Part shown: piece after piece, positions 14,656-62,534 of the stretch
Layout of the letters: each line of letters opens with the position of its first letter
How positions within the stretch are numbered: position 1 is the stretch's first letter
Origin: Eledone cirrhosa
Lineage: Eukaryota
DNA: 64,000 bases
NCBI GenBank assembly: GCA_964016885.1
Contig: OZ024742.1
Location: forward strand, 10,044,001-10,108,000
Direction of reading: 5' to 3'
Made by a program: the position numbers and the translations under genes
The notes under the pieces: model-generated
Database searches by the model: none
Seen by the model: the letters and a program-made list of their open reading frames with translations, nothing else
Told to the model about the DNA's origin: nothing

Positions 14656-17600
14656 ATCGACCTCAGTACTTGACTGGTATCTCTTTATCAACCTCTGTAC
14701 TACACTAGTACCTCTTTATCGACCTCAGTACTACACTAGTACCCCTTTATCGACCTCAGAAATAGACTGGTACCTTATTATCGACCTCAGTACTACACTA
14801 GTACCTCTTTATCAACCTCAGTACTACACTGGTACCTCTTTATCAACCTCACTACTACACTGGTTCCTTTTTATCGACCTCAGTACTAGTCTGGTACCTC
14901 TTTATTGACCCCAGTACTAAACTGGTACCTCTTTATTGACCTCAGTACAACACTGGTATCACTTTATCGACCTCAGTACTACACTGGTACCTTTTTATCA
15001 ACCTCCCTATTACACTGGTACCTCTTTATCCACCTCAGTATTAGACTGATACCTTTTTATCGAACCCAGTACTAGACTAGTACCTGTTTATCGACCTCAG
15101 TACAACATTGGTACCTTTTTATCGACATCAGTACTAAACTGGTACCTCTTTATCGATGTCAGTACTAGACTGGTACCTTTTTATCAACTTCAGTACTAGA
15201 TTTGTACCTCTATAATGACCTCAGTACTAAACTGGTACCTTTTTATCGACCTCAGTACTAGACTGGTACCTCTTTATCAACCTCAGTGCTACACTAGTAC
15301 CTGTTTATCAACCTCAGTACTACACTGGTACCTTTTATGGAGCTCACTACTACACTGGTACCATTTTATCGACCTCAGTACTAGACCTTGTACCTCTTTA
15401 TCAACCTCACTACTACACAGGTACTCCTTTATCAAAATCAGTACTAGAGTGATACCTTTTTATCGACTCCAGTACTAGACTGGTACCATTTTATCGACCT
15501 CAGTACTACACTGGTACCCTTTTATTGACCTCAGTACTAGACTGGTACCGATTTATCTACCTCAGTTGTAGACTGTACCACTTTATCAACCTCAGTACTA
15601 CACTGGTACCTCTTTATCAACCTCAGTACTACACTGGTAATTCTTTATCGAACTCAGTACTACACTGGTACATTTTTATCGACCTCAGTACTACACTGGT
15701 ACCTTATTATCGACCTCAGTACTAAACTGGTACCCTTTATCGACCTCAGTACTACACTGGTACCTTTTTATCGACCTCAGTACTAGACTGGTACCTTATT
15801 ATCGACCTCAGTACTAAACTGGTACCCTTTATCGACCTCAGTACTACACTAGTACCTCTTTATCGACCTCAGTACTAGACTGGTACCTCTTTATCAATCT
15901 CAGTACTACACTAGTAACTCTTTATCAACCTCATTACTACACAGGTACCTCTTTATTGAGCTCACTCCTACACTGGTAGCTTTTCATCGATCTCAGTACT
16001 AGTACGGTACCTCTTTATCAACCTCACTAATACACTGTACCTCTTTATCAACCTAAGTACTAGACTGATACCTTTTTATCGACCCCAGTACTAGACTGGT
16101 AACCCTTTATCGACCTCAGTACTACATTGTTACTTTTTTATCGACCTCAGTACTAAACTAGTACCTGTTTATCGACCTCAGTACTAGACTGGTACCTTTT
16201 TATCAAACTCAGTACTAGACTGGTACCTGTTTTTTGACCTCTGTACTACAGTGGTAATTTTTATCGACTTTAGTACTAGACTGGTACCTTTATATCAAAC
16301 TCACTTCTACACTGGTACCTCTTTATCAAGCTCAGTACTAGACTGATACCTTTTTATCGAACCCGGTACTAGACGAGTACCTTCTTATCGACCTTATTAC
16401 TAGACTGGTACCTCTTTATCGACCTCAGTACTACACTAGTACCGCTGTATGAACCTCAGTACTACACTAGTACCTCTTTATCAACCTCAGTACTAGACTG
16501 GTACCTTTTTCTTGACCTCAGTACTACACTGGTACCTTTCTTTCAACCTCATTACTAGACTGGCACCACTTTATCCACCTCAGTACCTCACTGGTACCTT
16601 TTTATCGACCTCAGTACTACACTGGTACCTCTTTATTGACCTCAGTATTACTCTGGCACCTCTTTATCGACCTCAGTACTAGACTGGTACATCTTTATCA
16701 ACCTCAGTACTAGACTGGTACAAATTTATCGACCTCAGTTGAAGACTGGTACCTCTTTATTGATCTCTGTACTACACTGGTACCTCTTTATCAACGTCAG
16801 TACTAGACTGGTACCTTTTTATCGACCTCAGTACTAGTCTAGTACCTCTTTATCGACCTAAGTACTAGACTGGTACCTCTTTATCAACATCTGTATAACA
16901 CTTGTACCTCTTTATCAACTTCAGTATTACACTGGTACCTCTTTATTGATCACACTACTACACTGGTTTCTTTTTATCGCCCTCAGTACTAGACTGGTAC
17001 CACTTTATTGATCTCAATACTACACTAGTACCTCTTTATCAACCTCAGTACTACACTGGTAATTTTTATCGACCTCAGTACTACACTGGTATCTTTTTTA
17101 TCGATCAGTATTAGTCGGGTACCTCTTTATCAACCTCACTAATACAGTGGTACCTCTTTATCAACCTCAGTACTAGACAGATACATTTTTATCGACACCA
17201 GTACTAGACTGGTACATTTTTATCGACCTCAGTACTACATTGGTACCTTTTTCTCGACTACAGTATTAGTCTTGTACCTCATTATCTACATCATTACTAC
17301 ACTGGTACATTTTTATAGACCTCAGTACTACATTGGTACCTTTTTATCGTGCTCAGTAGAAAACTGGTACCTCTTTATCGACCTCAGTACTAGACTGGTA
17401 CCTTTTTATCATCCTCAGTACTAGACTGGTACCTCTTTATTGACCTCAATACTACACTGGTACCTTTTTATCGACCTCAGAACTAGATTGGTACCTCTTT
17501 ATCAACCTCAGTACTACACTGGTACCTTTTTATCAACCTCAGTACTAGACAGTTACATTTTTAGCAACCTCAGTACTAGACTGATACCGCTTTCTTGACC

Positions 17601-20600
17601 TCAGTACTACACTGGTACCTTTTTATCGACCTCAGTACTAGACTAGTACCTCTTTATCCACCTCAGTATTAGACGATCTGAGTTCAAATCCCGCCGAGGT
17701 TGACTTTGCCTTTCATCCTTACGGGGTCGATAAAATAAAGTACCAGTAATGCACTGGGTAATTGCTGGCCTTGTGCCTAAAGTAGAAACAAGTATTAGAC
17801 TGATACCTTTTTATCGAACCCAGTACTAGACTAGTACCTGTTTATTGACCTCAGTATTACATTGGTACCTTTTTATCGTCCTCGGTGCAAGACAGGTACC
17901 TCTTTATCGACCTCAGTACATGTCTGGTACGTCTTTATCAACCTCAGTACTACACTAGTACCCCTTTATCAACTTCAGTACAAGACTGGTACCTTTTTAT
18001 TGACCTCAGTACTAGACTGGTACAGAATTATTGACCTCAGTTGCAGACTGGTATCTCTTTATCAACCTAAGTACTACACTGGTACCTCTTTATCAACCTC
18101 AGTACTACACTGTTTATTTTTATCGACCTCAGTACTACACTGTTTATTTTTATCGACCTCAGTACTACACTGGAACCTCTTTATCAACCTCAGTACTACA
18201 CTGGTACCTTTTTATCAACCTCAGTACTACACTGGTACCTCTTTATCAACCTCAGTATTACACTGGTACCTTTTTATCGACCTCAGTACTAGACTGGTAC
18301 CTTTTTATCAACCTCAGTACTACACTGGTACCTCTTTATCAACCTCAGTACTACACTGATACCTTTTTATCGACTCCAGTACTAGACTGGTACCATTTTA
18401 TCGACCATCAGTAATACATTAGTACCTTTTTATCGACCTCAGTACTAGACTGGTACCCCTTTATCAACCTCAGTACTACACTGGTACATTTTTATCGACC
18501 TCAGTACTAGACTGGTACCTCTTTATCAACCAAAGTACTACACTGGTACCTTATTATGGACCTCAGTACTAGACTGGTACCCATTTATCGACCTCAGTAC
18601 TACACTGGTACCTTTTTATCGACCTCAGTACTACACTAGTACCTCGTTATCGACCTCAGTACTAGACTGGTACCTCTTTATTGAGCTCACTCCTACACTG
18701 GTACCATTTTATCGACCTCAGTACTAGTCTGGTACCTCTTTATTGACCTCACTAATACACTGGTACCTCTTTATCAACCTAAGTACAAGAGTGATACCTT
18801 TTTATCGACTCCAGTACTAGACTGCTACCTTTTTATCGACCTCAGTACTACACTGGTACCTCTTTATTGACCTCAGTATTATTCTGGCACCTCTTTTCGA
18901 CCTCAGTACTAGACTGGTACCTCTTTATCAACCTCAGTACTAGACTGGTACAAATTTATCGACTTCAGTTGAAGACTGGTACCTCTTTATTGACCTCTGT
19001 ACTACACTGGTACCTCTTTATCAACGTCAGTACTAGACTGTTACATTTTTATCGACCTCAGTACTAGACTGATACCCCTTTATCAACCTCAGTACTAGAC
19101 TGGTACCTTTTTATCGACCTCAGTACTAGTCTAGTACCTCTTTATCGACCTACGTACTAGACTAGTACCTCTTTATCAACATCTGTACTACACTTGTACC
19201 TCTTTATCAACTTCAGTATTACACTGGTACCTTTTTATCGACCTCAGTACTACATTGGTAACTTTTTATCGAGCTCAGTACAAAACTGGTACCTCTTTAT
19301 CGACCTCAGTACTAGACTGGTACCTTTTTTATCATCCTCAGTACTACACTAGTACCTCGTTATCGACCTCAGTACTAGACTGGTACCTCTTTATTGAGCT
19401 CACTCCTAAACTGGTACCATTTTATCGACCTCAGTACTAGTCTGGTACCTCTTTATTGACCTCACTAATACACTGGTACCTCTATCAACCTAAGTACAAG
19501 AGTGATACCTTTTTATCGACCCCAGTACTAGACTGGTACCTTTTTATCGACCTCAGTACTACACTGGTACTTTTTTATCGACCTCAGTACAAAACTGGTA
19601 CCTCTTTATCGACCTCAGTACTAGACTGGTACAAATTTATCGACTTCAGTTGAAGACTGGTACCTGTTTATCAACCTCAGTACTACACTGGTACCTCTTT
19701 ATCAACGTCAGTACTAGACTGTTACATTTTTATCGACCTCAGTACTAGACTGGTACCTCTTTATCAACCTCAGTACTAGACTGGTACCTTTTTATCGACC
19801 TCAGTACTAGTCTAGTACCTCTTTATCGACCTACGTACTAGACTAGTACCTCTTTATCAACATCTGTACTACACTTGTACCTTTTTATCAACTTCAGTAT
19901 TACACTGGTACCTTTTTATCGACCTCAGTACTACATTGGTACCTTTTTATCGACCTCTGTTCTAGACTAGTGCCTCTTTATCAACCTCAGTACTACACTA
20001 GTACCTGTTTATCAACCTCAGTATTACACTGGTACCTTTTATTGAACTCACTACTACACTGGTACCTCTTTATCGACCTCAGTACTAGACTGTTACATAT
20101 TTATTGACCTCAGTACTAGACCGGTACCTCTTTATCGACCTCAGTATTACACTGGTACATTTTTATCGACCTCTGTACTAGACTAGTACCTCTTTATCAA
20201 CATCTGTACTACACTTGTACTTCTTTATCAACTTCAGTATTACACTGGTACCTTTTTATCGACCTCAGTACTACATTGGTACCTTTTTCTCGACCTCTGT
20301 TCTAGACTAGTACCTCTTTATCAACCTCAGTACTACACTAGTACCTGTTTATCAACCTCAGTACTACACTGGTACCTTTTATTGAACTCACTACTACACT
20401 GGTACCTTTTTATCGACCTCAGTACTAGACTGTTACATATTTATCGACCTAAGTACTAGACTGGTACCTCTTTATCAATCTCAGTACAACACTACTACCT
20501 CTTTATCAACTTCAGTATTACACTGGTACTTCTTTATTGAGCTCACTACTAGACTAATACCTCTTTATTGACCTCAGTACTACACTGGTACCTCTTTATC

Positions 20601-21476
20601 AACCTCAGTACTAGACTGGTACCTCTTTATCGACCTCAGTACTACACTGGTACCCTTTTATCGCCCTCAGTACTAGACTAATTACTCTTTATTGACCTCA
20701 GTACTACACTGGTACCTCCTTATCAACCTCAGTACAACACTGGTATCTCTTTATCGACCCCAGTACTAGACTGGTACCTTTTATTGAGCTCACTACAACG
20801 CTGGTCTCTTTTTTTATTGACCTCAGTCTAGCCTGTAGTCTGGTACCTCTTTATCAATCTCACTACTACACTGGTACCTCTTTATCAACCTAAGTACTAC
20901 ACTGGCACCTCTTTATCGACCCCAGTACTACACTGGTACCACTTTGTCTATCTCACTACTACACTGGCACCTCTTTATCGACCTCAGTACTAGACTGGTA
21001 CCTTTTATCAACATCAATACTACACTGGTTCATTTTTATCGACCTCATATCTAGACTGGTACCTTTTTATCAGCCTCAGTACAACCCTGGTACCTCTTTA
21101 TCGACCTCAGTACTATACTGGTACTTTTTATCGATCCCAGTACTATCCTGGTACCTCTTTATCAACGTCAGTACTACACTGGTGCCTCTTTATGAACCTC
21201 AGTACTAGACTGCTACCATTTTATCGCCCTCAGTACTACACTAGTACCTCTTTATTGACCTCAGAACTACACTGTTAACTCTTTATCAACCTCCGTACTA
21301 CTCTGGTACCTTTTTATCGACTTCAGTACTAGACTGGTACCTTTTTATCGACCTCAGTACTACACTGGTACCTCATTATTGCCCTCAGTACTACACTGGT
21401 ACCTTTTTATCGACCACAGTTATACACTGGTACCTTTTTATCGACCTCAGTACTACACTGGTACCTTTTTATCGAC
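14656..21476. repeat. 31-bp satellite array, about 215-220 copies, consensus atcgacctcagtacta(g/c)actggtacct(t/c)ttt
   Basis: Continuous 31-bp period over 6.8 kb with no spacers. The unit contains the palindromes agtact and ggtacc. Confidence 0.97.
17675..17790 (+). mobile_element. 5'-truncated family A SINE inserted into the satellite with a 10-bp target-site duplication
   Basis: agtattagac occurs at 17665-17674 and 17791-17800. The insert is nearly identical to 13120-13234. Confidence 0.92.
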
Positions 21477-34669: not shown

Positions 34670-36570
34670 TATTAGTAGTTTAGCAGTACTGGTAGAGGGT
34701 TGGACGCCATGCTTTCTAGCATAGTTAAGTCCCTTTACAGTCTGAGTTCAAATCCCGTCGAGGTTAACTTTGCCTTTCATCCTTACGGGGTCGATAAATA
34801 AAGTACCAGTAATGTACTGGGTAATTGCTGGCCTTGTGCCTAAAGTAGAAACAATTATTAAAGAGTGGTGGTTGGCAGAATCGGTAGAGAGTCGGACGCC
34901 TTTCTTTGCAGCATAGAGGTACGGCCCTTTACGGTCTGACTTCAAATCCCGCCGAGGTTAACTTTACCTTTCATCCTTAAGGGGTCGATGAAATAAATAC
35001 AATTTAATTGACATTCTCCTCCCGTCCTTGTGCCTAAATAAGAAAACATTATTATTATTGCTACGGTGTCAATAAAATAAAGTACCAGTAATGCACTGGA
35101 ATAATTATTATTGCTACGGTGCCAATAAAATAAAGTACCAGTAATGCACTGGAATAATTATTATTGCTACGGTGTCAATAAAATAAAGTACCAGTAAGGC
35201 ACTGGAATAATTATTATTGCTACGGTGTCAATAAAATAAAGTACCAGTAAGGCACTGGAATAATTATTATTGCTACGGTGTCAATAAAATAAAGTACCAG
35301 TAAGGCACTGGAATAATTATTATTGCTACGGTGTCAATAAAATAAAGTACCAGTAATGCACTGGAATAATTATTATTGCTACGGGGTCAATAAAATAAAG
35401 TACCAGTAATGCACTGGAATAATTATTATTGCTACGGTGTCAATAAAATAAAGTACCAGTAATGCACTGGAATAATTATTATTGCTACGGTGTCAATAAA
35501 ATAAAGTACCAGTAATGCACTGGAATAATTATTATTGCTACGGTGTCAATAAAATAAAGTACCAGTAAGGCACTGGAATAATTATTATTGCTACGGTGTC
35601 AATAAAATAAAGTACCAGTAATGCACTGGAATAATTATTATTGCTAAGGTGTCAATAAAATAAAGTACCAGTATTGCACTGGAATAATTGCTGGCCTTGT
35701 GCCAAAAAGTAGAAACAATTATTATTATTGCTACGGTGGATTGGGCGGTGGGTTGGCAGTATCGGTAGAGGGTCTGACACCATGCTTTGAAGCAATGAGT
35801 TACGGCCCTTTATGGTCTGAAATCCCACTGAGGTTAACTTTGCCTTTCAGCCTTACGGGGTCGATAAAATAAAGTACCAGTCACGCACTGGAATCGATTT
35901 CATCGACTTTTCCTTCCCCAAAAAGTGCTGGCCTTGTGCCTTTAAAAGAAACCATTATTAAATAGTGGTGGTTGGCAGTATCGGTAGAGCATCAGACACA
36001 ATGCTTTCTGGCATAGAGTTGCCTCTCTTTACGTTCTGAGTTCAAATCCCGCCGGGGTTAACTTTACGTTTCATCTTTACAGGGTTGATAAAATAAAGTA
36101 CCAGTAATGTACTGGAGTCGATTTAATCAACTTTCCCCTCCCTAAAATTGATGGCCTTGTGCCTAAATCATGAACCAATAGTAGGGCGGCAGATTGGCAG
36201 TATCGTTAGAGAGTCGGACAACATGCTTTGCGGCATAAAGTTATGGCCTTTTATGTTCTGAGTTCAAATCCGTTGGGGTTAATTTTACCGTTCTTCCTCA
36301 AGGGGCAATTAAAATAAATACAATTTAATCGACATTCTCCTCCCCTTCCTGTGCCTAAATCAGAAAATATTGGATTGGCAGTATCGGTAGAGGGTCGGAC
36401 GCCATGCTTTCCAGCAGAGAGTTACGTCCCTTTACGGAACTGAATTCAAATCCCGCCGAGGTTAACTTTGCCTTTCATCCTTACGGGGTCGATAAAATAA
36501 AGTACCAGTAATGTACTGGATTATTGCTGGCCTTGTGCCAAAAGTAGAAACAATTATTATTATTGCTACG
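34670..36570 (+). mobile_element. Head-to-tail cluster of six family A SINEs, interrupted by a 53-bp array
   Basis: tggcag(t/a)atcggtagag-type heads lie near 34680, 34872, 35754, 35972, 36195 and 36375. Each is followed by the B box and body. Confidence 0.9.
35049..35690. repeat. 53-bp minisatellite, 12 copies (attattattgctacggtgtcaataaaataaagtaccagtaa(t/g)gcactggaata)
   Basis: The ctacgg anchor (ctaagg in the last unit) recurs at 35061, 35114 ... 35644, a period of 53. Confidence 0.95.
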
Positions 36571-37337: not shown

Positions 37338-37394
<57 letters not shown>

Positions 37395-37668
37395 GGAATA
37401 GAATGAAACGAAATTTCATTTCTCACTCTTAGTACGGTACTTACTTAAATGTAAGTATGTATGTATGTATACGTACATACATATATGTATACAGACGTAC
37501 ATTAGTATGTATATATATACATACAGGCACACATATATATATGCACGTATCAGTTTACCGAACATTTATTATAATGCTCGGTTTGTTTGTAAACAAACAA
37601 GCAGCCCGAATTACGCCGTACAGTATTTAGGTAACTATGTCACCTTTTTGTTCAACACTGACACAGGA

Positions 37669-37711
37669 ACGATGTACTAGTTTCAAGCTTATTAGCTATC
37701 GTCAGCATCGT
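37669..37711 (-). ncRNA. Type I hammerhead ribozyme motif (copy A)
   Basis: The minus strand reads acgatg CTGACGA t-agct-aata-agct-t GAAA ctag TA catcgt. Confidence 0.8.
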
Positions 37712-38025
37712 ATACCTTCCTGCCAGATGGTTGAACGTCTGAAAGTATATACTTTCCTTATGCATATTAACGGCTGAGCAGCCTAATTTGTATATCGAGT
37801 GATTTCAGTCGGCCGGGCACACCGAAAACGATAAATGGAATAGAATGAAACGTAGTGCCGTACTAAGAGGGAGAAATGAAATTTCGTTTCATTCTATTCC
37901 ATTTATCGTTTTCGGTATGCCCGGCCGACTGAACTCCCTCGATATGCAAATTAGGCTGCTCAGCCGTTAATATGCATAAGGAAAGTATATACTTTCAGAC
38001 GTTCAACCATCTGGCAGGATGGTAT

Positions 38026-38068
38026 ACGATGCTGACGATAGCTAATAAGCTTGAAACTAATACATCGT
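38026..38068 (+). ncRNA. Type I hammerhead ribozyme motif (copy B; stem III variant CTAA)
   Basis: acgatg CTGACGA tagctaataagctt GAAA ctaa TA catcgt. Confidence 0.7.
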
Positions 38069-38470
38069 TCCTGTGTCAGTGTTGAACAAAAAGGTGACGT
38101 GGTTGCCTAAACTCGGTACGGCGTAATTTGGGCTGTTTGTTTGTTTACAAACAAACAAATCCGAGCATTATAATAAATGTTTGGTAAACCGATACGTGCA
38201 TATATATATGTGTGCATGTACGTATATATATATACACACTACTGTACGTCTGTATACATATATGTATGTACGTATACATACATACTTACATTTAAGTAAG
38301 TGACGTACTAAGAGTAAGAAATGAAATTTCGTTTCATTCTATTCCATTTATCGTTTTCGGTGTGCTCGGCCGACTGAACTCACTCGATATGCAAATTAGG
38401 CTGCTCAGCCGTTAATATGCATAAGGAAAGTATATACTTTCGGACGTTCAACCACCTGGCAGGAAGGTAT

Positions 38471-38513
38471 ACGATGCTGACGATAGCTGATAAGCTTGAA
38501 ACTAGTACATCGT
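38471..38513 (+). ncRNA. Type I hammerhead ribozyme motif (copy C)
   Basis: acgatg CTGACGA tagctgataagctt GAAA ctag TA catcgt, exactly 445 bp after copy B. Confidence 0.8.
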
Positions 38514-38639
38514 TCCTGTGTCAGTGTTGAACAAAAAGGTGACATGGTTGCCTAAACATTGTACGGCGTAATTCGGGCTGTTTGTTTGTTTACAAACAAA
38601 CAAACCGAGCATTATAATAAATGTTCGGTAAACCGATAC

Positions 38640-38686
<47 letters not shown>

Positions 38687-38855
38687 CATGTATGTATATA
38701 TATATATACATACTACTGTAGGTCTGTATACATATATGTATGTACGTATACATACATACATACTTACATATATATATATATATATACATATGTAATTATG
38801 TATACCTACATACATATATATACATACATAGATAGACACCCAGACATATATATAA

Positions 38856-38913
<58 letters not shown>

Positions 38914-39186: not shown

Positions 39187-39263
<77 letters not shown>

Positions 39264-39402
39264 CGTTTTTGAATTTGTTTTGCAGCATTCTTTATCTGAA
39301 AACGTGTGTTGAAACCGATATTGTATTAAATTTATAAATTTAAGAATTTATAAATTTCCGGCTGTTTGGTTGGTTCCATAACCGGACGGTTGTTCATATA
39401 TT

Positions 39403-39445
39403 GTCAAAGTTCTTTCGTCACACATTCTGTGACCTCTTCAGTGAC
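39403..39445 (-). ncRNA. Minimal type I hammerhead motif in the Penelope 3' terminal repeat
   Basis: The minus strand reads gtca CTGAAGA g gtcaca-gaatg-tgtgac GAAA gaac TT tgac. Confidence 0.72.
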
Positions 39446-39664
39446 TGGGGATTCTTTTCTTTGTTTTTGTGCCTCTCCTTTGTTCTGTCCTACGCCATCT
39501 TGTTTTTGTGTGTGTTGTGTTCTTAGTTTGCGCATGTGTTACATCCGGGTGCCTGTGTGTGTTTATATTTGTTTATTTATTTGACTATGTACATGTTACT
39601 GGTTGGTTGTTTGTTCTATGTGTGTGTGTGTTTTCATTTTGTTCTTAATTGTAAGTTGTGATGT

Positions 39665-42600
39665 TGCTATTCCAGTCATGTTTTCTATTTAATTTTGGTT
39701 GGAGTTCATTTATGTTTATTGCCTCTGTGATTTGTCTAAACATTGCATCTTTTCTGTGTGTAAATTCTATTTTTATTTCTATGTTCTCTAATTTGCCCTT
39801 ATGTTCTATTTTAGCATGTTAGTGGAGTATTAATGATTCTTTTTTATCTTGAAGTTCTCGCCATTGTTCATTTAACCGTTCTCCTATACTACCAGCTGTC
39901 TAACCTATGTACACTATATTCTTATCTTTACATTGTCCTTCAGTACATCTTATGCTATATACTACATTTCTAGTTTTACAGTTAATATGGGGGTTAGTTT
40001 ACAGATTATGCATTTCTTATCTATACAGGGATGTCTTTGAAAAGGCTATGTCTTGCTAATAAGTGTTTTTATGGAGGTACCTGGTCTTTCTATTATCTTA
40101 ATATTAAGTTTATGCTTATCTAGGGCCCTTCTAAATTTGTAAGCTAATTCACCTCTAGGGGTTATATTGATGAACATTGCACTCTGGTATTTATTGCTAT
40201 CATACCATGAGTTTATTCTATTAACCTTATTCCTAGTTCTTTCTATTCTATTCCAAAAGGTGCTCCTATACAAGGGGCAGGTCCATTTGTATTATTATTT
40301 ACCATGTTTCCCCATTTGGTTCTGGCTCCTCTATATACTCTAATTTTATCTCTCTGATTGTAACCAGAGAACTGCATACGGTGGATGAAGTGTTGTATGT
40401 GTCTCTCTAGTTCTTTTGGGTTGCACATGCGGGACACGTTTCTTATCACCCGTACCAAATCCGCAATCAGTACGTTTATTTTGGTATGGTCCGAAACAGC
40501 TGAGTTTCGGTGGATCAGATATTTGGAAGTCATGGGTTTGGCATAATGGGAATGGAGGATTTGTTTTTTGTTATTAATGGTTTCTAACCAGAGCTCTGTG
40601 TCTACTACAGGTAATCGATGGTTGGAGTGTTTGCTTGGGTAGTCTATAGTAACTCTAATACTCTGGTGGATGGAGTTAGCTATTTGCTGAATGCTTTCCA
40701 TGGTGTTTTTCTCTAATTCCTGACTGTTCTCTAGTGGGGGTGTTTTTACTACGATGTTTATATCATAAACGTAGCGGGAGTACATTATCAGGGTTAAGAG
40801 GTTGCTGTATTCTAATTGTTCTTTAAGTTTAACACCAATGGCTTCTTTAAGTTTAACACCAATGGCTGCTCCCTCCTCTTGGGCATATGTTTTTCCATTA
40901 AATTTGAATATATGTTCCTTAAGGGTAAATTTTATACTGGCCCCCACCGCATATGCAGTCATTTTCTTTAGTTCATCGTGGTTTTCGTGGGTCCGTATGA
41001 CTCTGGTCCACCCGTTCCATCCTTCTGTGTGGGTTTTCTTGGCCATTGAAGCAATGGTAGGTGGTCTGCCTCTTGCTGGTCTTGTAGGGCACAGGTTGCT
41101 AAGGTCACATGTATCTAGATAATCATTACTATAGGTAAGTTTAAGTAGGAGTCCCAGCTCACTGGTATCAATCCCACAGAATTCAACATTGCTCTCACTG
41201 ATCATTTCTACGCATTTCTCCACAGCAAAATCCACGTCAATGGATGGATATAGGTACACAACATCCATACTTCCTATTATACCGTTTGTTAGGTCCCTAG
41301 ATCGGTTACTTTCGCTGATTCTGCTGAGGAGGTCCTCCGTGCTCTCACATATATCTGGGGACATTTCAATGATGGGGCGTATGATCAGGGAGAGGAAGTA
41401 GGAAAGTCTGTAGTTACTAGCAATTTTACTCCACAGACTGGCCGTGTTGGTGGTCCTGTGAAAGGGTCACTGCTCGTTTTATCGTCTTTTCGAAGCCCAT
41501 ACAACGCTGGCACATCATTGTTACAGGCCTGGAAGTTGTTGGCAGTCCTTTTATTGGGCTGCATTATGTTTGTCCACATCATCATATGGGCATTGAGGAT
41601 TTTCTCCCTATCCTTATGCTCTTGTAGTGTTACTTCTCTTGTGTTAGTGATGTGGGGTTGCATTGCCTGGATGTAGTTTGTCAGACTGTCAACCGACATT
41701 CTGCCAGACTTGTCTGTTGGAAAGCATGCAATCTCTCCATTACGCCAGCGCTGCATGAGCTTACGCAAGCCATTTGCAGATTTTTCTCCCAGTTGCTGGG
41801 CTTCCATTCTATTTTTCTTCTTGCTATACTGTTCTATACTATTTCTAAGCTTAGATCTAGATATACTAAATTGTGCTTCTGTTTGTTCATCGACCTGCGA
41901 CGGCAATTGCGTGCGTTTGTTAAAAGATAAAGTCATGACGTGGACTCGTCGTAGGTCGAAGGACATATCGGAAGGATTATAAAATGTAGAGTTCCAGGCT
42001 GCTGCTTTATGTGTACTATTGCTATTGTTATTGTTAGTTGTGTTGTCTCTATTTCTATTTCCACCAACAGCCTCATGGTTGTTTCTATGTCTCTCATTAT
42101 TACTCCTGTCTCTTTCCTCTGGCTCATTGTTATTATCTTATCTGTTTTGTGTGTCTGTGTGTTCGTTCTGGTTATTTTCTCTGTCAGTATCGATAGTCTC
42201 CCTTCTCCTTTCAATCCCATTACATTCCCTTACTTCTGTGTTACTGCCATTACCTGTTTTCTGTGTCTGTGTGTTTGTTAAGATTGTGGTGGTGGTGAGA
42301 GGCATAGAATGTGTGTGTGTGTTGTTGTTGTTGTTGATATGTGCTGTTGTTGATGTGTTTTGTTGTTGTTGTTGTCTCCGTGTATGTTATTATTGTTGTG
42401 TGTGTTGTTGTTATAGTTGTTTGTGTCTGTGTGTCTGTTGTTGTTGTTTCTGAGTATGTTATTATTGTTGATGTGTGTGTTGTTGTTATTGTTGTTTGTG
42501 TCTGTGTGACTGTTGTTGTTGGGATGTGTGTGTGCGTATGTTGTTACTTTTGTTTTTGTTTTTGAGGCTCCAACGTAATTTTGTAAATTATTTTTCTATT

Positions 42601-42790
42601 TCTGACAAGCATTTTATAATATTTACCTTATTATATGTGGCATATTTAGGTGGTAGCTGTAATATCGATAATTCATCAGAGTCTACTATAGTGTTGCTGT
42701 ATATATTTGTGTTGTTGTTGTTGAATTCATCTGTTAATGAGATGTCGGCCATGTTTATATCATCAATCTTGTCTGGATATTTATCTCTAT
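39665..42790 (-). pseudogene. Penelope-like RT plus GIY-YIG endonuclease ORF, disrupted
   Basis: LQLPPKY, PTDKSGR, LYGLRKD..PPTRPV, GSMDVVYLYPSI, YSRYVYDI (degenerate YVDD), HYAKP, RMQFSGY. Linker CIDKKCIIC. NCKTRNVVYSIRC...VYIG*T, and RQITEAINI...LNRKHDW (manual translation of 39670-40045). Confidence 0.88.
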
Positions 42791-42793
42791 TCT

Positions 42794-42909
42794 CTGAAGA
42801 GGTCACAGATGTGTAACGAAAGAACTTTGACAATATATGAACAACCGTCCGGTTATGGAACCAACCAACCAACCGGAAATTTATAAATTCTTAAATTTAT
42901 GAATTTAAT
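42794..42909 (+). repeat. Inverted partial copy of the Penelope terminal repeat at the element 5' end
   Basis: Starts at CTGAAGA and matches the reverse complement of 39325-39441 with few differences. Confidence 0.88.
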
Positions 42910-43324
42910 TTATAATAAATTGGAGTGAAAGCATCTGGTGCGTGTGTTTTTTATTGGCAACATGACCCTCCCAAAGCATAACAATATATATATATATATA
43001 TATATACAGATATATATATATATATACTGGTATATATATATACACAAACACGAACAGTTCGCCGTGATTGTAACTACACTATGCTTTTCTTGATTTTCAT
43101 GGCTCTCTTTTGAAAGCAGACAAAATAATTGTATTGAATTATATTTTTCTTTTCAGAAACAATCAGTGACATCCATACACCACACCATACACCACATACA
43201 TCCATACACTACACCTTACACCACACCATACACTACACCACTTACAATAAACCATCCAATATATATCACATACTATACAACCAAACATTTGCTTTCGCTT
43301 TATATTACTTTTAAATACTTCCTG

Positions 43325-45453: not shown

Positions 45454-45581
45454 CATATATATATTTATATATATATATATATGTATATATATACGTGTGT
45501 GTGTGTGCATGTGTGCATTTGTATGTATGTATATATATATAGTTTGTATCTATGTATATATATATAGTTTTAATATAGCTG

Positions 45582-45632
45582 AGATTCTACAGGACTAGAA
45601 CTGTTTCAATCTTCAGAAATCATCAGGAATCT
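45582..45632 (-). ncRNA. Type I hammerhead-like motif with weak stem II
   Basis: The minus strand reads agattc CTGATGA tttctgaagatt GAA acag-ttctagtc-ctgt A gaatct. Confidence 0.55.
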
Positions 45633-45814
45633 GGCTTTCCCAAAATAAATGTTGTGGTATATATATCATTTCAGGTGGCAAGAGAGGGTGGGGAGTGGGA
45701 TGGGTGGAGGTCATTGGTTGAAAGAAAATGGAATTCATTAAAAGCTAATTCTTTAAGGCTATAATTTATATTTAGTGTGACAAAGGCAGAAAGAATTCTA
45801 TAAACAGGTTACCT

Positions 45815-51229: not shown

Positions 51230-53445
51230 TTCTTTATTTACCATAAAGGCATAAAAAGAAGGGACAAATACAAAGGGGGAGTTTACATATAATCGAGTAA
51301 AAAGGGTGTAACATGAAAATAATCGAAAATAACCTCAAAAGAGAGGGGACGTGATGGGGGTTGCACACACCCCCGAAAAAGTGTGCAATCCTTTGCCCGG
51401 GGAGCACATGGAGAAGGTGCTCCCCTCTCCTTTACTTCTTTACCTACAGGATGGTATACAGAGAAGGCCCATTTACACGAGCCATTCTCGCCACTATCAC
51501 CCACCTTTCATAAAACTGCCTGTGGCCAAGCACCTCTCTCTCCATTCTTATCCTTCTTCCGAAGTGATATCGGAAGAAGTAGACCAGACTATGGCCAGAG
51601 AGGAAGTTGCCTGACCTCAGACCTTTCAATCGTGTCCACCAAACAACCTCTTTCAACATGGCTATTACGCACAGAAAAACCGCCTTTGCTTCCTTTGTGA
51701 AGAGGGGAGGCGGTTTGATTGTCATCACGGACTCGGCGGTCAATTTAATCGGCGCCACCCGCGAGAGCAGTTGTTCGGCGTAGCCCCACAGATCAGCCAC
51801 GCCCGGACATTGCACCAATGCGTGCGCTACAGTTTCTTCGTGACGCACGCATCTAGGGCAAATCTTTTTTGAGGGATCCCTGCCCGGGCGCCCGTGTCTG
51901 TAGAGCCTCTCTCGAACGGGTAGAGCCCCTCGGTAGCACTGCCAGGCCAGTGACTTCTGGAAGTTGTCCATTGGTCCTGGGCCGAAAGTCCTACCGAACA
52001 GGCTGGCCAGTTCGTCTTCTTCCATGTCCAGCGACTCTCCAAGGGTGTCATCGCCCCTGCTAGCCACCAGCCCTCTATAGAATGATGAGGTGGATTCTCC
52101 ACCGATGGCCCGGCCCGCTTGCCAGAGAGCCCTGAGCGCCTGAGCACACTCAGTGTGCCAGTCTCCCAGTTTTCCGGATCTTTGCTTGACCCAGGACTGT
52201 AGCTCGGTGAGTGAGACGAGTCTCGGAAAGGCTCGTTTCACGAACGGAGCCCACACCGGTTGACCAGTGAGGAATACCTGTAGGTGCCGTAGCCTTAATG
52301 CGTGCCTACGCATCATCAACCACGGCATCCCCAGCCCTCCTTTCGAAGGTTGTTGGCAGCAGATGGATCTTCTCACCATAGGAGGACGCTTCTTCCAAAG
52401 AAATTGGAAGAGCATGCGTTCCATGGTGGTGAGTGTTTCCTTAGGGCAAGGCACGACAGTCAGGCGGTAGTAAGTGACGGACGCTATGTAAATGTTCGCC
52501 ACCTCCGCCCGGCCTTTTAGGGACAGCTTACACTTGGCCCATTTCTGGGTTAGTGCAAACACCTTGTTCGTAACCTCGTTCCAGTTCTTTTCCACCTGGA
52601 GGTCCGGTCCAAACCAGACCCCAAGCAACTTTACCGGGCCCTCCGTCCAGTGTCCGACGACACCGTCAGGAGGCATCGGTTTGCCTCTCCACGTTCCGAG
52701 TTGCAGCCCGATGGATTTTTCCCGGTTCAGTTTCGCTCCTGACAACCCTTCGTACTCCTCCAGTAAGGTACCGATCGCCTCGATCTCCGAGTCGGTTGAT
52801 ACCATTACTGTTACGTCATCGGCGTAGGCCGACACCGCTTTGCTCAATCCTGGTTCCAGGGGGATACCCTGCAACAACTCCAACTTCCTCAGTAAAGGCT
52901 CGAGAGTCAATACGTACAGAAGGGAGGAGAGAGGGCACCCCTGTCGAATGGATCGTGTGATTTCGAACGGCTTCGAAAGGTAGCCGTTCACCTTGATCCT
53001 AGAACAGATGTGGTTGCTATGTAGGGCAGTGATCCAGCCTCTGAAAACAGGACCGAACCCAGCCGCCGCTAGCACCGCATCCAGGTAACCATGGTCGACC
53101 CTATCGAAGGCCTTAGACTGATCCAAGTTGATCAGGGCCCCACCGAAGCCGGGTTTGTTGCCAACCCTCTCTATGATGTATCGCATGAGGTGGAGGTTAT
53201 CGTGAATGGACCTGGATGGGATAGCACATGTCTGCGCATCTCCCACCAGGCTACCCACGACAAGCGCCAACCTCTTTGCTAACACCTTGGCCAAAATCTT
53301 TAACTCTGTGTTTAGCAGGGTTATGGGCCGAAAATTATTTATACTATCCCCCTTGTTCTCGTCCTTCCTCACCAGCGTGACTACGCCCTTGGCTACAGAA
53401 CAAGGAATTCTCCCGTTCTGCTGCCAATTGCAGTAGACCGCTTCA
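51185..53445 (-). mobile_element. Tx1 LINE, 5'-truncated (copy T4); RT and C-terminal zinc finger are uninterrupted
   Basis: Open frame 51444-53445: NFRPITLLN, LDQSKAFDRVDH, IRQGCPLS, YADD, CPRC..ETVAHALVQC. (GATA)n on both sides. Confidence 0.95.
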
Positions 53446-53446
53446 T

Positions 53447-53499
<53 letters not shown>

Positions 53500-53504
53500 G
53501 AGAG

Positions 53505-53544
<40 letters not shown>

Positions 53545-55100
53545 TTCTTTATTTGCCACAAGGGCGCACGAGAAAAGTGGACAATACAAAGACACATGCC
53601 AGGTATTTTACATACAGTCGTGTAAAAATATTATTAAAACAAACAAATTTAACAATCGTAACGCCTCTCCCCGACAGGGGAGAGGCGTTACAAATGGGTT
53701 GTTTAATACTCCGCCGATAGAACAACCCTCAACTTCAGGAGCGTGTTGTGCAAGTGCTCTTTCTTCCTTTTGCTCTCTTCTTCAACCTACAGGTTTATAT
53801 ACAGAGAAGGCCCGATTACTCGGGCCATTTTTGCTGCATTCATCCACCTTTCAATTAATTTACTGGGGTGCAGTGCCTCTCTCTCCACTCTGATTCTCCT
53901 TCTAAAGTGATACCTAAAGAAGGGAATGAGTTGTCCGGAAAGAAAGGTATCTGTCCTCAGTCATCTCAATCTCGTCCACCATATAACCTCTTTCACCATA
54001 GCCACTATACAGAGGAAAACCACCTCTCTTTCGTTTTTGAAAGAGGTTGGCGGTTTGATCCTTACTATGGACTCGGCAGTCAACTGGATCTGTCCCATAC
54101 GCGACAGCAGTTGTTCTGCGTAGTTCCACAGGTGGTTACGCCCGGGCAGTGTACAATTGCGTGCAGGACTGTTTCAATGTCCTGCGCGCATCTTGGACAC
54201 GTCCTTTTGGAAGGATTCCTTCCGGGGCGTCCGTGCCTGTAGATCTTGTCTCGAACTGGTAGAGCTCCTCGGTAGCACTGACAGGCCAGGGACATCTGGA
54301 AGTTGTCCATAGGTCCCGGGCGGAAAGTCCTACCAAACAGACTGGTGAACTCGTCGTCTTCGACGCCCAGAGTCTCTCCGAGCACGTTGTCGCCCATGTG
54401 ACGTATTAACCCTCTATAGAATGTCGAAGTGGAGTCTCCATTGATTGCTGTACCCGCTTGACAGAGGACTGTGAGCGCCTGAGCGCATTCACTGTGCCAG
54501 GCTTTTTCGGTCTGCGCTTGACCCAGGACTGCAGCTCCGTCAGCGAGACAAGTTGCTGGAAGGCCTGTCTCACAAACGGTGCCCACACCGGTTGGTCGGT
54601 GAGGAATACCTGGAGATGCCGTAGCCTCAGCGCATGTTTTCGCCTCATCAGCCACGGCATTCCCAGCCCTCCGTTGGAAGGGTGCTGACTGCAGACGGAT
54701 CTCCTCACCAGTGGAGCCTGCTTCTTCCAAAGGAACTGGAAGAGCATGCGCTCAATCTTGGTGAGGTGTTCACGGGGACAAGGCACGATGGTCAAGCGGT
54801 AGTAGATGACGGACGCTATGAAAGTGTTCGCCACCTCGTTTCAAGGATAGATCGTACTCTTCCCACTTCTGGGTGAGCGCAAATATCTTGGCCGTGACCT
54901 CGTTCCAGTTTTTCTCCACCTGGAGGTCCGGACCGAACCAGACCCCGAGCAATTTCACCGGTCCTTCCGTCCAGCGTCTGACGACACTGTCGGACGGCAT
55001 CGGTTTGCCTCTCCACGTTCCGAGTTGCAAACCGACAGACTTGTCCTGGTTCAGTTTTGCTCCTGTAAACCTTTCGTATTCCTGCAGTAAGTTGCCGAAC
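53446..55100 (-). mobile_element. Tx1 LINE, 5'-truncated, distinct subfamily (copy T5)
   Basis: Frameshifted RT thumb and C-terminus, a distinct 3' UTR, and a long (GATA)n tail at 53446-53543. Confidence 0.92.
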
Positions 55101-59046: not shown

Positions 59047-62000
59047 TTCTTTATTAGCCACAGGGGCACAAAAGAAGGGGACAAATACAAAGGGGGAAGT
59101 TTACATACAATAAAAACGTGTAAAATGTTATCACAGATGGAATTTAAAAGTTAGTCGATTTTCCCCAATAGAGGGAGACAGTTTATATGGGTAACACATA
59201 CCCCCGAAAAAAAATGTGCAACCCTCATCTCCAGGAGTACGAAGAGCTTGTACTCCCTTCCTCTCCTCCTCCTTTTCCTCAATCTACAGGCTGATATAGA
59301 GAGAAGGCCCATTCACTCGGGCCATTCTCGCCACTTTCACCCACCTTTCATAAAACTTGCTGGGGTACAGCACCTCTCTCTCCATCCTGATTCTTCTTCC
59401 AAAGTGGTATTTGAAAAAAAGAATCAGTTGTTGGCCGGAGAGAAAGGTGTCTGACCTCAGCCCTTTCAACCTTGTCCACCATACAACCTCTTTCGCCATA
59501 GCTATCACACAAAGGAAAACCGCCTCTCCTTCGTTTTTGAAGGAGGGTGGCGGTTTGATCATGACAATGGACTCGGTGGTCAACTGGATTGGTCCCACCC
59601 GCGACAATAGTCGTTCTACATATCCCCACAGGTCAGTGACGCCCGGGCAGTGTATGAATGCGTGCGCGACGGTTTCTTCGTCTCGCACGCACCTCGGACA
59701 GATCTTTTTTGCAGGGTCCCTGCCCGGGCGCCCATGTCTGTAGAGCTTGTCTCGAACTGGTAGAGCTCCTCGGTAGCACTGCCAGGCCAGGGACTGTTGG
59801 AAGTTGTCCATCGGTCCCGGGCGGAAGGTCCTACCGAACAGACTGGCCAGTTCATCTTCCTCCACGCCTAGAGTTTCACCGAGCGCGTCGTCGCACTTGC
59901 TGCGGACCAACCCTCTATAGAATGACGAAGTGGAGTCTCCACTGATCGCCGGGTCCGCCTGTCAGAGGGCTGTGAGCGCCTGAGCACATTCGATGTGCCA
60001 GTCGCCCATTTTCCTCGGTCTCTGCTTGACCCAGGACTGCAGCTCGGTCAGTGAGACGAGTCGTGGGAAGGCTCGCCTCACGAACGGGGCCCACACCGGT
60101 TGTCCGGTGAGGAATACGTAGAGATGCCGCAGCCTGAGCGCGTGTTTGCGCATCGTCAACCACGGCATCCCCAGCCCTCCGTTAGAAGGGTGTTGGCAGC
60201 AGATGGATCTTCTTACCAAAGGAGCCCGCCTCTTCCAAAGGAATCGGAAGAGGGCGCGCTCCATTTTGGCGAGCGTTTTGGCTGGACAAGGCACGACGGT
60301 CAAGCGGTAGTAGATGGCGGACGCTATAAAAGTGTTCGCCACCTCCGCTCGACCTTTCAAGGATAGTTTGCACTCGGCCCACTTCTGGGTGAGTGCAAAC
60401 ACCTTGGCCGTCACTTCGTTCCAGTTCTTCTCCACCTGGAGGTCCGGACCAAACCAGACCCCGAGCAGCTTTACCGGTCCTTCCGTCCAGCGTCCGACGA
60501 CGCCATCGGAAGGCATCGGTCTGCCTCTCCACGATCCGAGTTGCAAACCGATGGACTTGTCCCGGTTCAGCTTCGCTCCTGTGAGACTTTCGTATTCCTT
60601 TAGTAAGGTGCCGACTTTCTCGATTTGCGAGGCGCTCGACACCATTACTGTCACGTCGTCGGCGTAGGCCGACGCCGCTTTCCGCAGTCCCGGTTCCAGA
60701 GGGATGCCCTGCAATAGCTCCAGCTTCCGCAGTAGTGGCTCGAGAGTCAGTACGTACAGAAGGGAGGAGAGAGGGCATCCCTGTCGAATGGATCGCGTAA
60801 TATGGAACGGCTCCGAGAGGTAACCGTTCACCTTGACCCTTGAGCAGATGTTGCTGTTGTGCATTGCAGCAATCCAGCCCCTGAACACGGGTCCGAAGCC
60901 TGCCGCCTCGAGCACCGCATCCAGGTAACGATGGTCAACCCTATCGAAAGCCTTAGACTGATCCAAGTTGATCAGGGCCCCACCGAAGCCGGGTTTACAC
61001 CCAACCCTCTCTATGATGTATCGCATGAGGTGGAGGTTGTCGTGTATGGACCTGGTCGGGATCGCGCATGTCTGCGCTTCTCCCACCAGGTTCTCGACGA
61101 CAAGCGCCAGCCTCTTTGCCAACACCTTGGCCAAAATCTGTAACTCTGTGTTTAGCAGAGTTATGGGCCGGAAGTTGCCTATGTCATCCCCCTTATTCTC
61201 GTCCTTCCTGATTAGTGTGACCACGCCCCCGGTTACAGAACTGGGAATTCTCCCGTTCTGTTGCCAGTTGCAGTAGACCGCTTCCAGGAGACCGGAGAAT
61301 AAGTCCGGCATTGCTGCGTAAAATTCGTAGGGTAGACCGTCGAGACCTGGAGATTTGCGTTTGCCGCATTGGCTCAGCGCGTCCCCTATCTCAGTGGCTG
61401 AAATCGGCTTTTCGCAGAACTTCGCCTCGCTGTCCGAGAGTCGCGGTAGGCCGTCGAGGTATGGACCGAAATCCATAGCCTCTCCCGGCGCGCCGCTCCC
61501 CCCGAACAGCCGAGCAAAGTGCCGCTGAAAAGCCGCACACATCTGCTTCGGCTCACGTATCACGCGTCCGTTTTGGTCCTTCAAAGACCGAATCGTGGAC
61601 TTGTTGCCACTTTTTGCCTCCGTCACTCGGGCCCAGCTAACAGCTTTGGCTCCCTCGTTTCCCAGAGCACGTATTTTGCTTCTGACAACGCAGCCCTCGT
61701 GCTTTGCGTCGAAGAACTGGTCCAAGGCCGTTCTCGTTGCTAGCACGCTGGCTACGTTGCCACTTCTAATAGCCTCTTCTACTTTATCTACCAGTTCCTT
61801 CTCGGTTCTATTTCTATCTAACGCTAATTCTTTACTAAAAACTATCGAGTCTAATCTAACTGCCCTCTTGAGAGAGTACCACCATCTGTTGTTGACAATG
61901 GCCCCTGTCAAGTGCTGTTTAACTAAAGTGCTAATCCGTCTACTGTAGGCTTTGCTTGTCGGTAACGACAAGTTCAGCTTCCAGTAGCCGGGTCCTTGTC

Positions 62001-62534
62001 TATGGGTTCTATCAAGGTTGGCCATGCAGGTCACTAGTTTGTGATCTGAATAGGCAACCATGAACATTTGTGGACAGCTTAACATGTCCCTATCCTTATT
62101 TCTAACTAGAACCCTATCTAGGTACGATCTAGATGTTCCGCTCGATTAGTCCACGTCCACAGTGGCGCAGTCGGAAAATCTAGTCGATATCTATCGGCCA
62201 GGTCAAATCGGTCGATTAACTGTTTGAGGCTGTTACACCCCCCTTTATCGGGACATGCTCCCACATAGTCCCAACGTGCATCTAGGATTCCATTCCAGTC
62301 CCCCACTAAAAGCAAGGAGCGGGACGTTCCCAGAAAAGTCTCTAGACGTTTGAAGAAGTCTGGCCGCGGTGTCCCGGATGGGGCATATGCGGCCACCAGC
62401 CTGAACGCTCCACCTTCACTACCGTCAACGTCTAGGACCACCAGTCGACCCTCCGGGTCCAGATGTACCGTCTGTGTTACGAGGCCCAGGTGTTTCCGCA
62501 GCAAAACGGCAACCCCGGTTGACAGAGATATGCG
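59001..62534 (-). mobile_element. Tx1 LINE truncated within the APE domain, nearly intact ORF2 (copy T8)
   Basis: 128-aa, 707-aa and 208-aa ORFs are separated by one 1-bp deletion (about 62140) and one TGG>TGA stop (59962). Confidence 0.95.

Follow-up and report, generated by a model that had tools for sequence, protein, structure and literature searches.

The route by which animal retrozymes return to the genome is an open question. Members of the non-LTR class have already been described, a mollusc being one of the hosts, and it has been proposed that the enzymes of Penelope-like elements (PLEs) mobilise them from circular templates (PMC7229834). Neither the accessible text of that paper nor that of a study on vertebrate retrozymes (10.64898/2026.07.22.740005) argues for PLE mobilisation from the anatomy of insertions. 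The canonical metazoan type I hammerhead has a helix I of 6 bp, a helix II of 4 bp and a helix III of 1-2 bp with a palindromic loop, and works as a dimer (PMC4209133). PLEs themselves leave partial tandems, an inverted 5'-truncated copy and a tail of 30-40 bp, often at one end, in microsatellite targets; an in vitro system has been called for to explain this tandem, inverted and tail structure (PMC8557442).

Here we analysed a 64,000-nt stretch of the Eledone cirrhosa genome (contig OZ024742.1, positions 10,044,001 to 10,108,000; hereafter the window), which harbors a 445-bp repeat unit that we regard, with a probability of about 90%, as a PLE-mobilised retrozyme. Self-comparison of the window revealed that positions 37389-38769 form a single insertion, in which an inverted arm A stands head-to-head with a tandem arm B+C. 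The insertion is flanked on both sides by strandless target runs, a (TA)n run on the left (37340-37390) and a (TA)n-rich run on the right (38770-38907). With unit positions u1-u445 counted from 37854, the 5'-truncated arm A (37389-37852, minus strand) starts from u32, passes through one full unit and continues into a 60-nt tail (37389-37448, minus strand; u439-445 plus u1-53), which ends at u53 of the next unit, the second of two fixed 3' termini. Beyond the head-to-head junction (37852-37854, no strand), unit B (37854-38298, plus strand, 445 bp) is followed by unit C (38299-38769, plus strand), which ends at u438, the first fixed 3' terminus, and lacks the tail. Unit C also holds an internal (TA)n expansion at 38644-38690. 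The copies diverge by 4-5%, differing at 15/299 (A/B), 11/299 (A/C) and 17/334 (B/C) compared sites. A sequence-only reading of this stretch had claimed a tandem, structured, non-coding 445-nt repeat in (TA)n without a real ORF; indeed, there are three 445-bp units with both outer ends in (TA)n, and the longest ATG frame in B+C has only 83 codons.

Each unit possesses a type I hammerhead core, with the CTGACGA box starting at 37705 (minus strand) in A, 38032 (plus) in B and 38477 (plus) in C. The three ribozymes span 37665-37717 (minus), 38020-38072 (plus) and 38465-38517 (plus), and their GUA/AUA triplets end at 37675, 38062 and 38507, respectively, after which cleavage is predicted. The latter two are exactly the sites from which the earlier reading had predicted release of a 445-nt monomer (38063-38507, plus strand, cleavage site to cleavage site). 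In each of them, CUGACGA leads via a U.U mismatch into a helix II of 4 bp, the loop of which is AAUA (GAUA in C); GAAA, a minimal helix III and a helix I of 6 bp complete the motif. The minimal helix III sits inside the palindrome ACUAGU in A and C, as had been noticed, and the palindrome is broken in B (ACTAAT). Among the helices first assigned, acgatg/catcgt (helix I) and agct/agct (helix II) stand, whereas the helix I extension gcagga/tcctgt had to be replaced: only 76.9% of its cells are paired, compared to 92.6% for an AGG/CCU register that follows a UAU bulge facing one U, in which 2/3 pairs change on both sides. The same distal helix reads GGA/UCC in a sister family with a 310-bp unit.

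The U.U mismatch that closes helix II, absent from the sequence-only reading, stands where the base of helix II would have its G10.1-C11.1 pair. Of 154 elements, many of them at loci picked by pattern, 151-152 have the mismatch. As axolotl HHR_Amex2, which also has U.U at this position, cleaves, and does so better as a dimer (PMC7229834), the mismatch is no bar to membership in the canonical type I class, whose published helix lengths and palindromic helix III loop are matched here (PMC4209133). The fold is further supported by compensatory changes carried by the 310-bp family and a second sister of 469 bp. Across 18 distinct rows from the 445-bp and 310-bp families, which represent few independent events, 97.8% of cells are paired and 9/15 pairs have changed on both sides; this paired share was reached by 0/500 shuffles, and slid controls gave 30-47%. 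The pair 176/212 is kept in 144/154 elements via three pair types. The core (CUGANGA / GAAA / UH with open helix I) is intact in 206/257 family segments and damaged in 51/257. The Rfam search returned nothing at the gathering score, and none of the 134 matches at E ≤ 10 was a hammerhead, which reflects a limit of the library rather than the absence of a defining feature.

Folding prediction showed that two copies of the C ribozyme cofold as a double hammerhead at -42.4 kcal/mol, compared to 2 × -19.6 kcal/mol for separate copies, and that the core of C alone would misfold. As the sister families keep the helix III palindrome, the ribozyme probably cleaves as a dimer. The monomer 38063-38507 is predicted to adopt a rod capped by the ribozyme, in addition to a ring of hairpins. 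The hairpins listed in the earlier reading do fold. The less repetitive 342 nt at 38299-38640 fold better than 100/100 shuffles (z -4.5); the circular monomer reaches z -7.4 against 60 shuffles, a value inflated by AT-rich palindromes.

Searching the 3.0-Gb genome yielded 3,073 candidate copies, of which 40 were scored, at 97-98% identity and spread over many contigs. Exact matches in the genome number 3,376 for a motif pattern of 30 nt, while a relaxed version has 16,954 and a tail motif 2,540, compared to 0 for each of the reversed control patterns; subtraction of the 310-bp family from the relaxed count leaves at most about 13,260 ribozyme motifs. We analysed 160 elements, or about 1% of the copies, which lie in 146 stretches after merging (800 kb in total; 5 elements touch an edge). 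They comprise the best 29 DNA matches and the window, plus matches taken in order of position, for the most part within the initial 80 Mb of contig C1; all loci were chosen for a ribozyme or tail, with a bias towards near relatives of C and the start of C1. The insertions are dispersed, protein-free and of high copy number, without an LTR-internal layout, and range from dimers to arrays of >40 units. With 445 bp, 38% GC and a type I hammerhead in each, the units fall within the range of retrozymes (150-450 bp, <50% GC). The unit exists in thousands of dispersed copies, those sampled having no attached RT ORF, and in 0/160 sampled elements does it serve as the terminal repeat of a Penelope element, so that the non-LTR retrozyme identity put forward earlier is supported (as defined in PMC7229834).

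Comparison of the sampled insertions revealed that the layout in the window is a general one. Their 3' ends concentrate at two fixed sites 60 nt apart, with 117/262 arms ending at u410-445 (the first terminus) and 114/262 at u40-54 (the end of the tail). A TA run is abutted by 89/117 and 95/114 of these arms, respectively (184/231 together), compared to 5/31 of the other arms; the (TA)n masks any target-site duplication. Head-to-head arms are present in 85/155 complete elements and a single arm in 65/155. In 87 arm pairs, the tail is on one arm in 57, on neither in 10 and on both in 3, the remaining 17 having an unclassed end; thus 57/70 classed pairs are one-sided (p 1e-7). The 5' ends are scattered along the whole unit, although they are somewhat more frequent at hairpins (u271-300) and close to u1. 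Altogether, the sampled insertions carry the footprint of PLEs: an inverted 5'-truncated arm, a fixed 3' end, a one-sided tail and a microsatellite target. The inverted arms, the one-sided tail and the (TA)n target make the PLE link stronger than the sequence-only reading could know.

The clustering of some junctions at the u271-300 hairpins would also fit fold-back reads in the assembly or chance hairpins in AT-rich DNA. However, the arms differ by about 4% and are asymmetric, with the tail on one side; the reversed patterns found nothing, and each of the 29 bins into which the unit stretch was divided is covered by contigs from public sequencing runs, although one run may be the source sample. 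An artefact is hence hardly credible. Two of the four compared runs, with 6 and 7 contigs only, are filed under other organisms, which we do not take as evidence of range.

The cleavage site leaves no trace in the insertions. Only 4/174 5' ends lie at u205-214, where about 4 are expected if uniform, and the 267 segments that cross the site have 2 insertions and 3 deletions in u205-215, without excess compared to elsewhere. As there is neither a pile-up nor a scar, the template was continuous across this site, either as a ligated circle or as an uncleaved multimer. A linear cleaved monomer was rejected for want of the 5' pile-up; end-to-end jumping on such a monomer was rejected for want of a scar, an argument short of strict exclusion. 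It is conceivable, if rather unlikely, that the PLE enzyme copies an uncleaved linear multimer from a tandem locus, with the ribozyme merely trimming or dormant and no circle being copied. Such a template also predicts arms of more than one unit, an unscarred cleavage site and arms matched by subfamily, and only 1/9 tested frog dimers cleaved (10.64898/2026.07.22.740005). What speaks against it is the ribozyme fold kept by compensatory changes in three families, and the difficulty that, from one generation to the next, arrays would have no means of growing longer other than a circle or expansion at a later stage.

Comparison of the units points to one template for both arms of an insertion. 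With the complex loci L184 and L114 set aside, units differ by 4.2-4.6% within an element, compared to 7.6% between elements, and subfamily-diagnostic sites agree in 64-65% versus 9%. For rare variants, sharing per 100 sites amounts to 0.18 when inverted arms are compared (12/62 elements) and to 0.075 for tandem units (9/58), whereas different elements share only 0.0097. The partner arm falls in the closest quartile in 23/37 elements (p 2e-6, L114 again set aside). As it does not in 14/37, and units differ by the above 4.2-4.6%, the signal of one template is partial in this older 445-bp family.

A sharper picture is given by the 310-bp sister, which was found with the relaxed pattern (3,693 exact motifs) and has the palindrome ACGCGU. 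Its tail is on one arm in 9/9 two-armed insertions, and four more insertions are single-armed. Units were compared in 7 loci, five further loci having been missed by the unit-cutting pattern. At L269, 16/16 units are identical across both arms, and at L181 (C3:15494041-15500088) 16/18; L266 has 26 full units, about 27 in all, in a single arm. From these two-armed arrays of near-identical units, the family appears to be very young. A private change is present in 7/7 units of both arms at L271, and two private changes mark both arms at L270, which would be explained most simply by one monomer copied repeatedly. Compared to copying of a circle, a linear multimer needs a one-monomer bottleneck if all units of the two arms (7/7) are to carry the same private change; nevertheless, a homogeneous uncleaved multimer, for example from an earlier one-monomer event, leaves much the same footprint.

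The 469-bp sister, to which 98 of the first 100 among 1,605 pattern matches belong, is 67% alike to the 445-bp unit over 254 nt (E 3e-10). Its hammerhead is fully canonical, with a G-C helix II base and a GUC site, together with the same loop 2 and the palindrome ACUAGU, and its copies are 94-100% identical in the same two-armed layout (L312-L341, for example L328, L333 and L335). In both the 445-bp and 469-bp families, a homologous hairpin holds the first terminus in its loop, which suggests that the priming sites are set by RNA structure. A further, older sister family (L109:5500-6170, L283-L310) has a U.U helix II base and a longer helix III, and has 3'-side sequence in common with the 310-bp family.

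A few arrays expand later as satellite DNA. In one array of the 445-bp family, 41 units with the motif extend over 26 kb and show higher-order block duplications (contig C1, ~70,055,700-70,077,100; L281, L184, L142), and the core-inactivating change C3A is found in 34/41 of its units, the inverted arm included. It follows that an intact ribozyme is not required in every unit, and the existence of such an array also favors the uncleaved multimer as a template. This locus is a retrozyme turning into satellite DNA. Its >40 units and block duplications would likewise fit a route in which solo or short insertions derive from a PLE terminal repeat and become tandem later by unequal crossing-over (Li et al. 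2026). As a general account, this route is very improbable: it fails on the multimers in both inverted arms, on the partial units at random 5' ends and on the identical units across opposite arms of young insertions.

The sequence-only reading had also pointed to a PLE of the same inverted architecture about 550 bp away. This element is real, at 39260-42985 (minus strand), about 500 bp off and separate from the unit. It is a decayed Neptune-like PLE with an RT, a CX4CX2C linker and, at its C terminus, a GIY-YIG-like domain, where "Neptune-like" refers to the linker motif described in PMC8557442 and not to a tree. It has its own minimal hammerhead at 39441 (minus) with an inverted copy at 42794 (plus), an inverted 5' arm and a 60-nt tail. 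Pfam search of its two frames in the window gave 0 families, and a PDB search with its ORF 0 matches. Its family has 23,129 candidates, with open frames of up to 1,257 codons; the nearest copies are 96-99% alike, and the window copy is older, at 89-92% to others. Copies with an open frame are numerous, and the family has a low-complexity stretch at the N terminus, rich in Asn/Thr/His. We rejected this adjacent PLE as the parent of the unit, since its minimal ribozyme is a different one and the two share no sequence. The unit is absent from 30 loci of this PLE family, save for a nested fragment in one, and no 3' sequence is common to the unit and the four PLE or ribozyme-repeat ends compared, other PLE families being present in the genome. 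We therefore regard the neighbouring PLE as context and its family as a candidate donor of the enzyme, not as part of the unit.

The window holds several other repeats. At 45570-45640 (minus strand) lies the end of another hammerhead-like repeat family with a U.U helix II base, which ends in (TA)n. A 31-bp tandem array (14656-21476, 220 copies), a 53-bp array (34691-35689) and repeated SINE-like pieces (36000-36560) have short motifs in common. Two LINE-type RT frames (RVT_1, zf-RVT) at 51444-53630 and 59284-62145 (minus strand) are unrelated to the retrozyme.

The PLE-like architecture of the ends would also be expected if the unit were the pseudo-LTR of an unsampled autonomous PLE and its copies the 5'-truncated ends of that element. 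However, what lies upstream of a unit is another unit instead of an ORF, and neither the 160 elements, which were searched with two PLE proteins, nor 91 open 5' junctions gave a PLE ORF that enters an arm from its 5' side. Those 160 were drawn from some thousands of insertions, and a Neptune-like query misses distant PLE clades. In the sampled elements, no ORF of RT plus GIY-YIG lies between repeats in the manner of an autonomous PLE, and the PLE ORFs beside copies belong to neighbours that are nested, one of which brings along a ribozyme repeat of another kind. We accordingly consider the pseudo-LTR origin improbable.

Several apparent leads to a partner did not hold or stayed ambiguous. The apparently ORF-linked copies at L108, L196 and L146 are nested insertions, the apparent head-to-head chimera at L114 has a short inverted piece of the unit at its joint, and the partner pattern of that at L144 has 1 match. 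Neither flank clustering nor a ribozyme scan of the loci gave a lead that held up, and two wider ribozyme patterns retrieved more sister retrozymes and no ORF-linked parent. At L118:2596-3340, an arm of the older sister family stands head-to-head with a 5'-truncated endonuclease ORF of a second Neptune-like family, with no TA between; this single case is possibly a two-template chimera pointing to the mobilising enzyme, and would fit shared machinery. More PLE families with a C-terminal GIY-YIG-like domain and their own hammerheads are present at L279, L280, L108:4261-6320 and L146:1484-3720, and are putatively Hydra-like by their motif. For one of them, 1,421 exact copies of the ribozyme motif were counted, and its tail is close to 100 nt long. 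The (TA)n runs are nesting hubs for the 445-bp unit, its sisters and the PLE families.

The tail length offers a further point of comparison. Tail contexts give 60 nt for the neighbouring PLE (15/45; 17 end without a tail) and 59 nt for the second Neptune-like family (4/11). By the same measure the 445-bp unit has 59 nt in 31/258 contexts, 113 running on into the next unit, and two other ribozyme-bearing repeat families have 71 and 98-101 nt. The match near 60 nt with the Neptune-like families is a lead only and may be chance, because the tails of the sisters measure about 26-30 nt (310 bp) and about 70 nt (469 bp); these lengths likewise weaken the notion of a fixed 60-nt "ruler".

Based on these results, we propose that the unit is a non-LTR retrozyme spread by a PLE, probably of Neptune type, whose RT/endonuclease would copy a circular RNA monomer; the scheme as a whole appears likely. 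A tandem locus would be transcribed, and hammerheads paired through the ACUAGU palindrome would cut out the 445-nt monomer, which a host ligase would close, as inferred from known retrozymes; RtcB ligates retrozyme RNA in vitro (PMC7229834). The PLE enzyme would then nick a (TA)n run on both strands, and each of the resulting DNA ends may prime at one of the two fixed, AU-ending RNA sites 60 nt apart. Synthesis of each cDNA would proceed along the circle, cross the junction where the ribozyme was ligated, and end at no fixed position. Finally, the two cDNAs would be joined head-to-head, giving the joined arms that are seen, and a few arrays would then expand as satellite DNA.

More tentatively, the insertions might be read as a fossil record of twin-primed rolling-circle reverse transcription, in which the two nicked (TA)n strands prime on a single circular ribozyme RNA, at two sites defined by its structure, and both cDNAs follow this same circle. 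At least four viroid-like RNA parasites (445, 469 and 310 bp, and one more) would then be evolving as RNA structures, with no sequence in common with the mobilising PLEs, some families looking active now. If true, priming by two strands would also account for the inverted arm and the tail on one side that PLEs generally show. The data on the 445-bp family bear on the unexplained tandem, inverted and tail structure of these elements. The homogeneous two-armed arrays of the young sister families make the circle model testable.

Compared to described elements, the 445-bp unit is most similar to the metazoan non-LTR retrozymes (PMC7229834), with which it shares a short AT-rich tandem unit without an ORF, a type I hammerhead per unit, and a highly paired circular fold that leaves the ribozyme free. 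Its 445 bp lies at the upper end of the reported metazoan sizes. The 1-bp helix III with a palindromic tetraloop of axolotl HHR_Amex1 and the U.U at the helix II base of HHR_Amex2 both resemble the unit (PMC7229834). However, the inverted second arm, the one-sided tail and the (TA)n targeting found here are not described in the accessible text of that paper, which showed circles by northern blot, whereas here the circle is predicted from genome sequence. No description of the 445-bp family or of inverted-arm retrozyme insertions was found in the literature searched; the family may already be catalogued in Repbase, Dfam or supplements.

The overall layout of the insertions is similar to that of EN+ PLEs of the Neptune type (PMC8557442), including partial tandems, an inverted 5'-truncated arm, a tail at one end and a microsatellite target, and the neighbouring Neptune-like family has the same layout with a 60-nt tail. 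In contrast to these PLEs, the unit has no protein, a canonical long hammerhead where PLEs have the minimal type, no sequence shared with any of the PLE ends that were compared, and a tail longer than the quoted 30-40 bp (PMC8557442). The non-autonomous Chlamys elements, such as MRC1, are likewise PLE passengers with multicopy head-to-tail insertions; they generally have the 3' sequence of their partner and mostly lack hammerheads, whereas the 445-bp unit has a ribozyme and no common 3' end was found (PMC8557442). The vertebrate retrozymes are also regarded as non-autonomous partners of PLEs, on the grounds of co-occurrence and pLTR similarity, with tandems arising via local expansion (10.64898/2026.07.22.740005). 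Unlike in that account, the PLE link of the 445-bp unit derives from the anatomy of its insertions, and its multimers appear to be made at insertion. The 445-bp family is an ordinary kind of element, for which the evidence on how a retrozyme moves is unusually direct.
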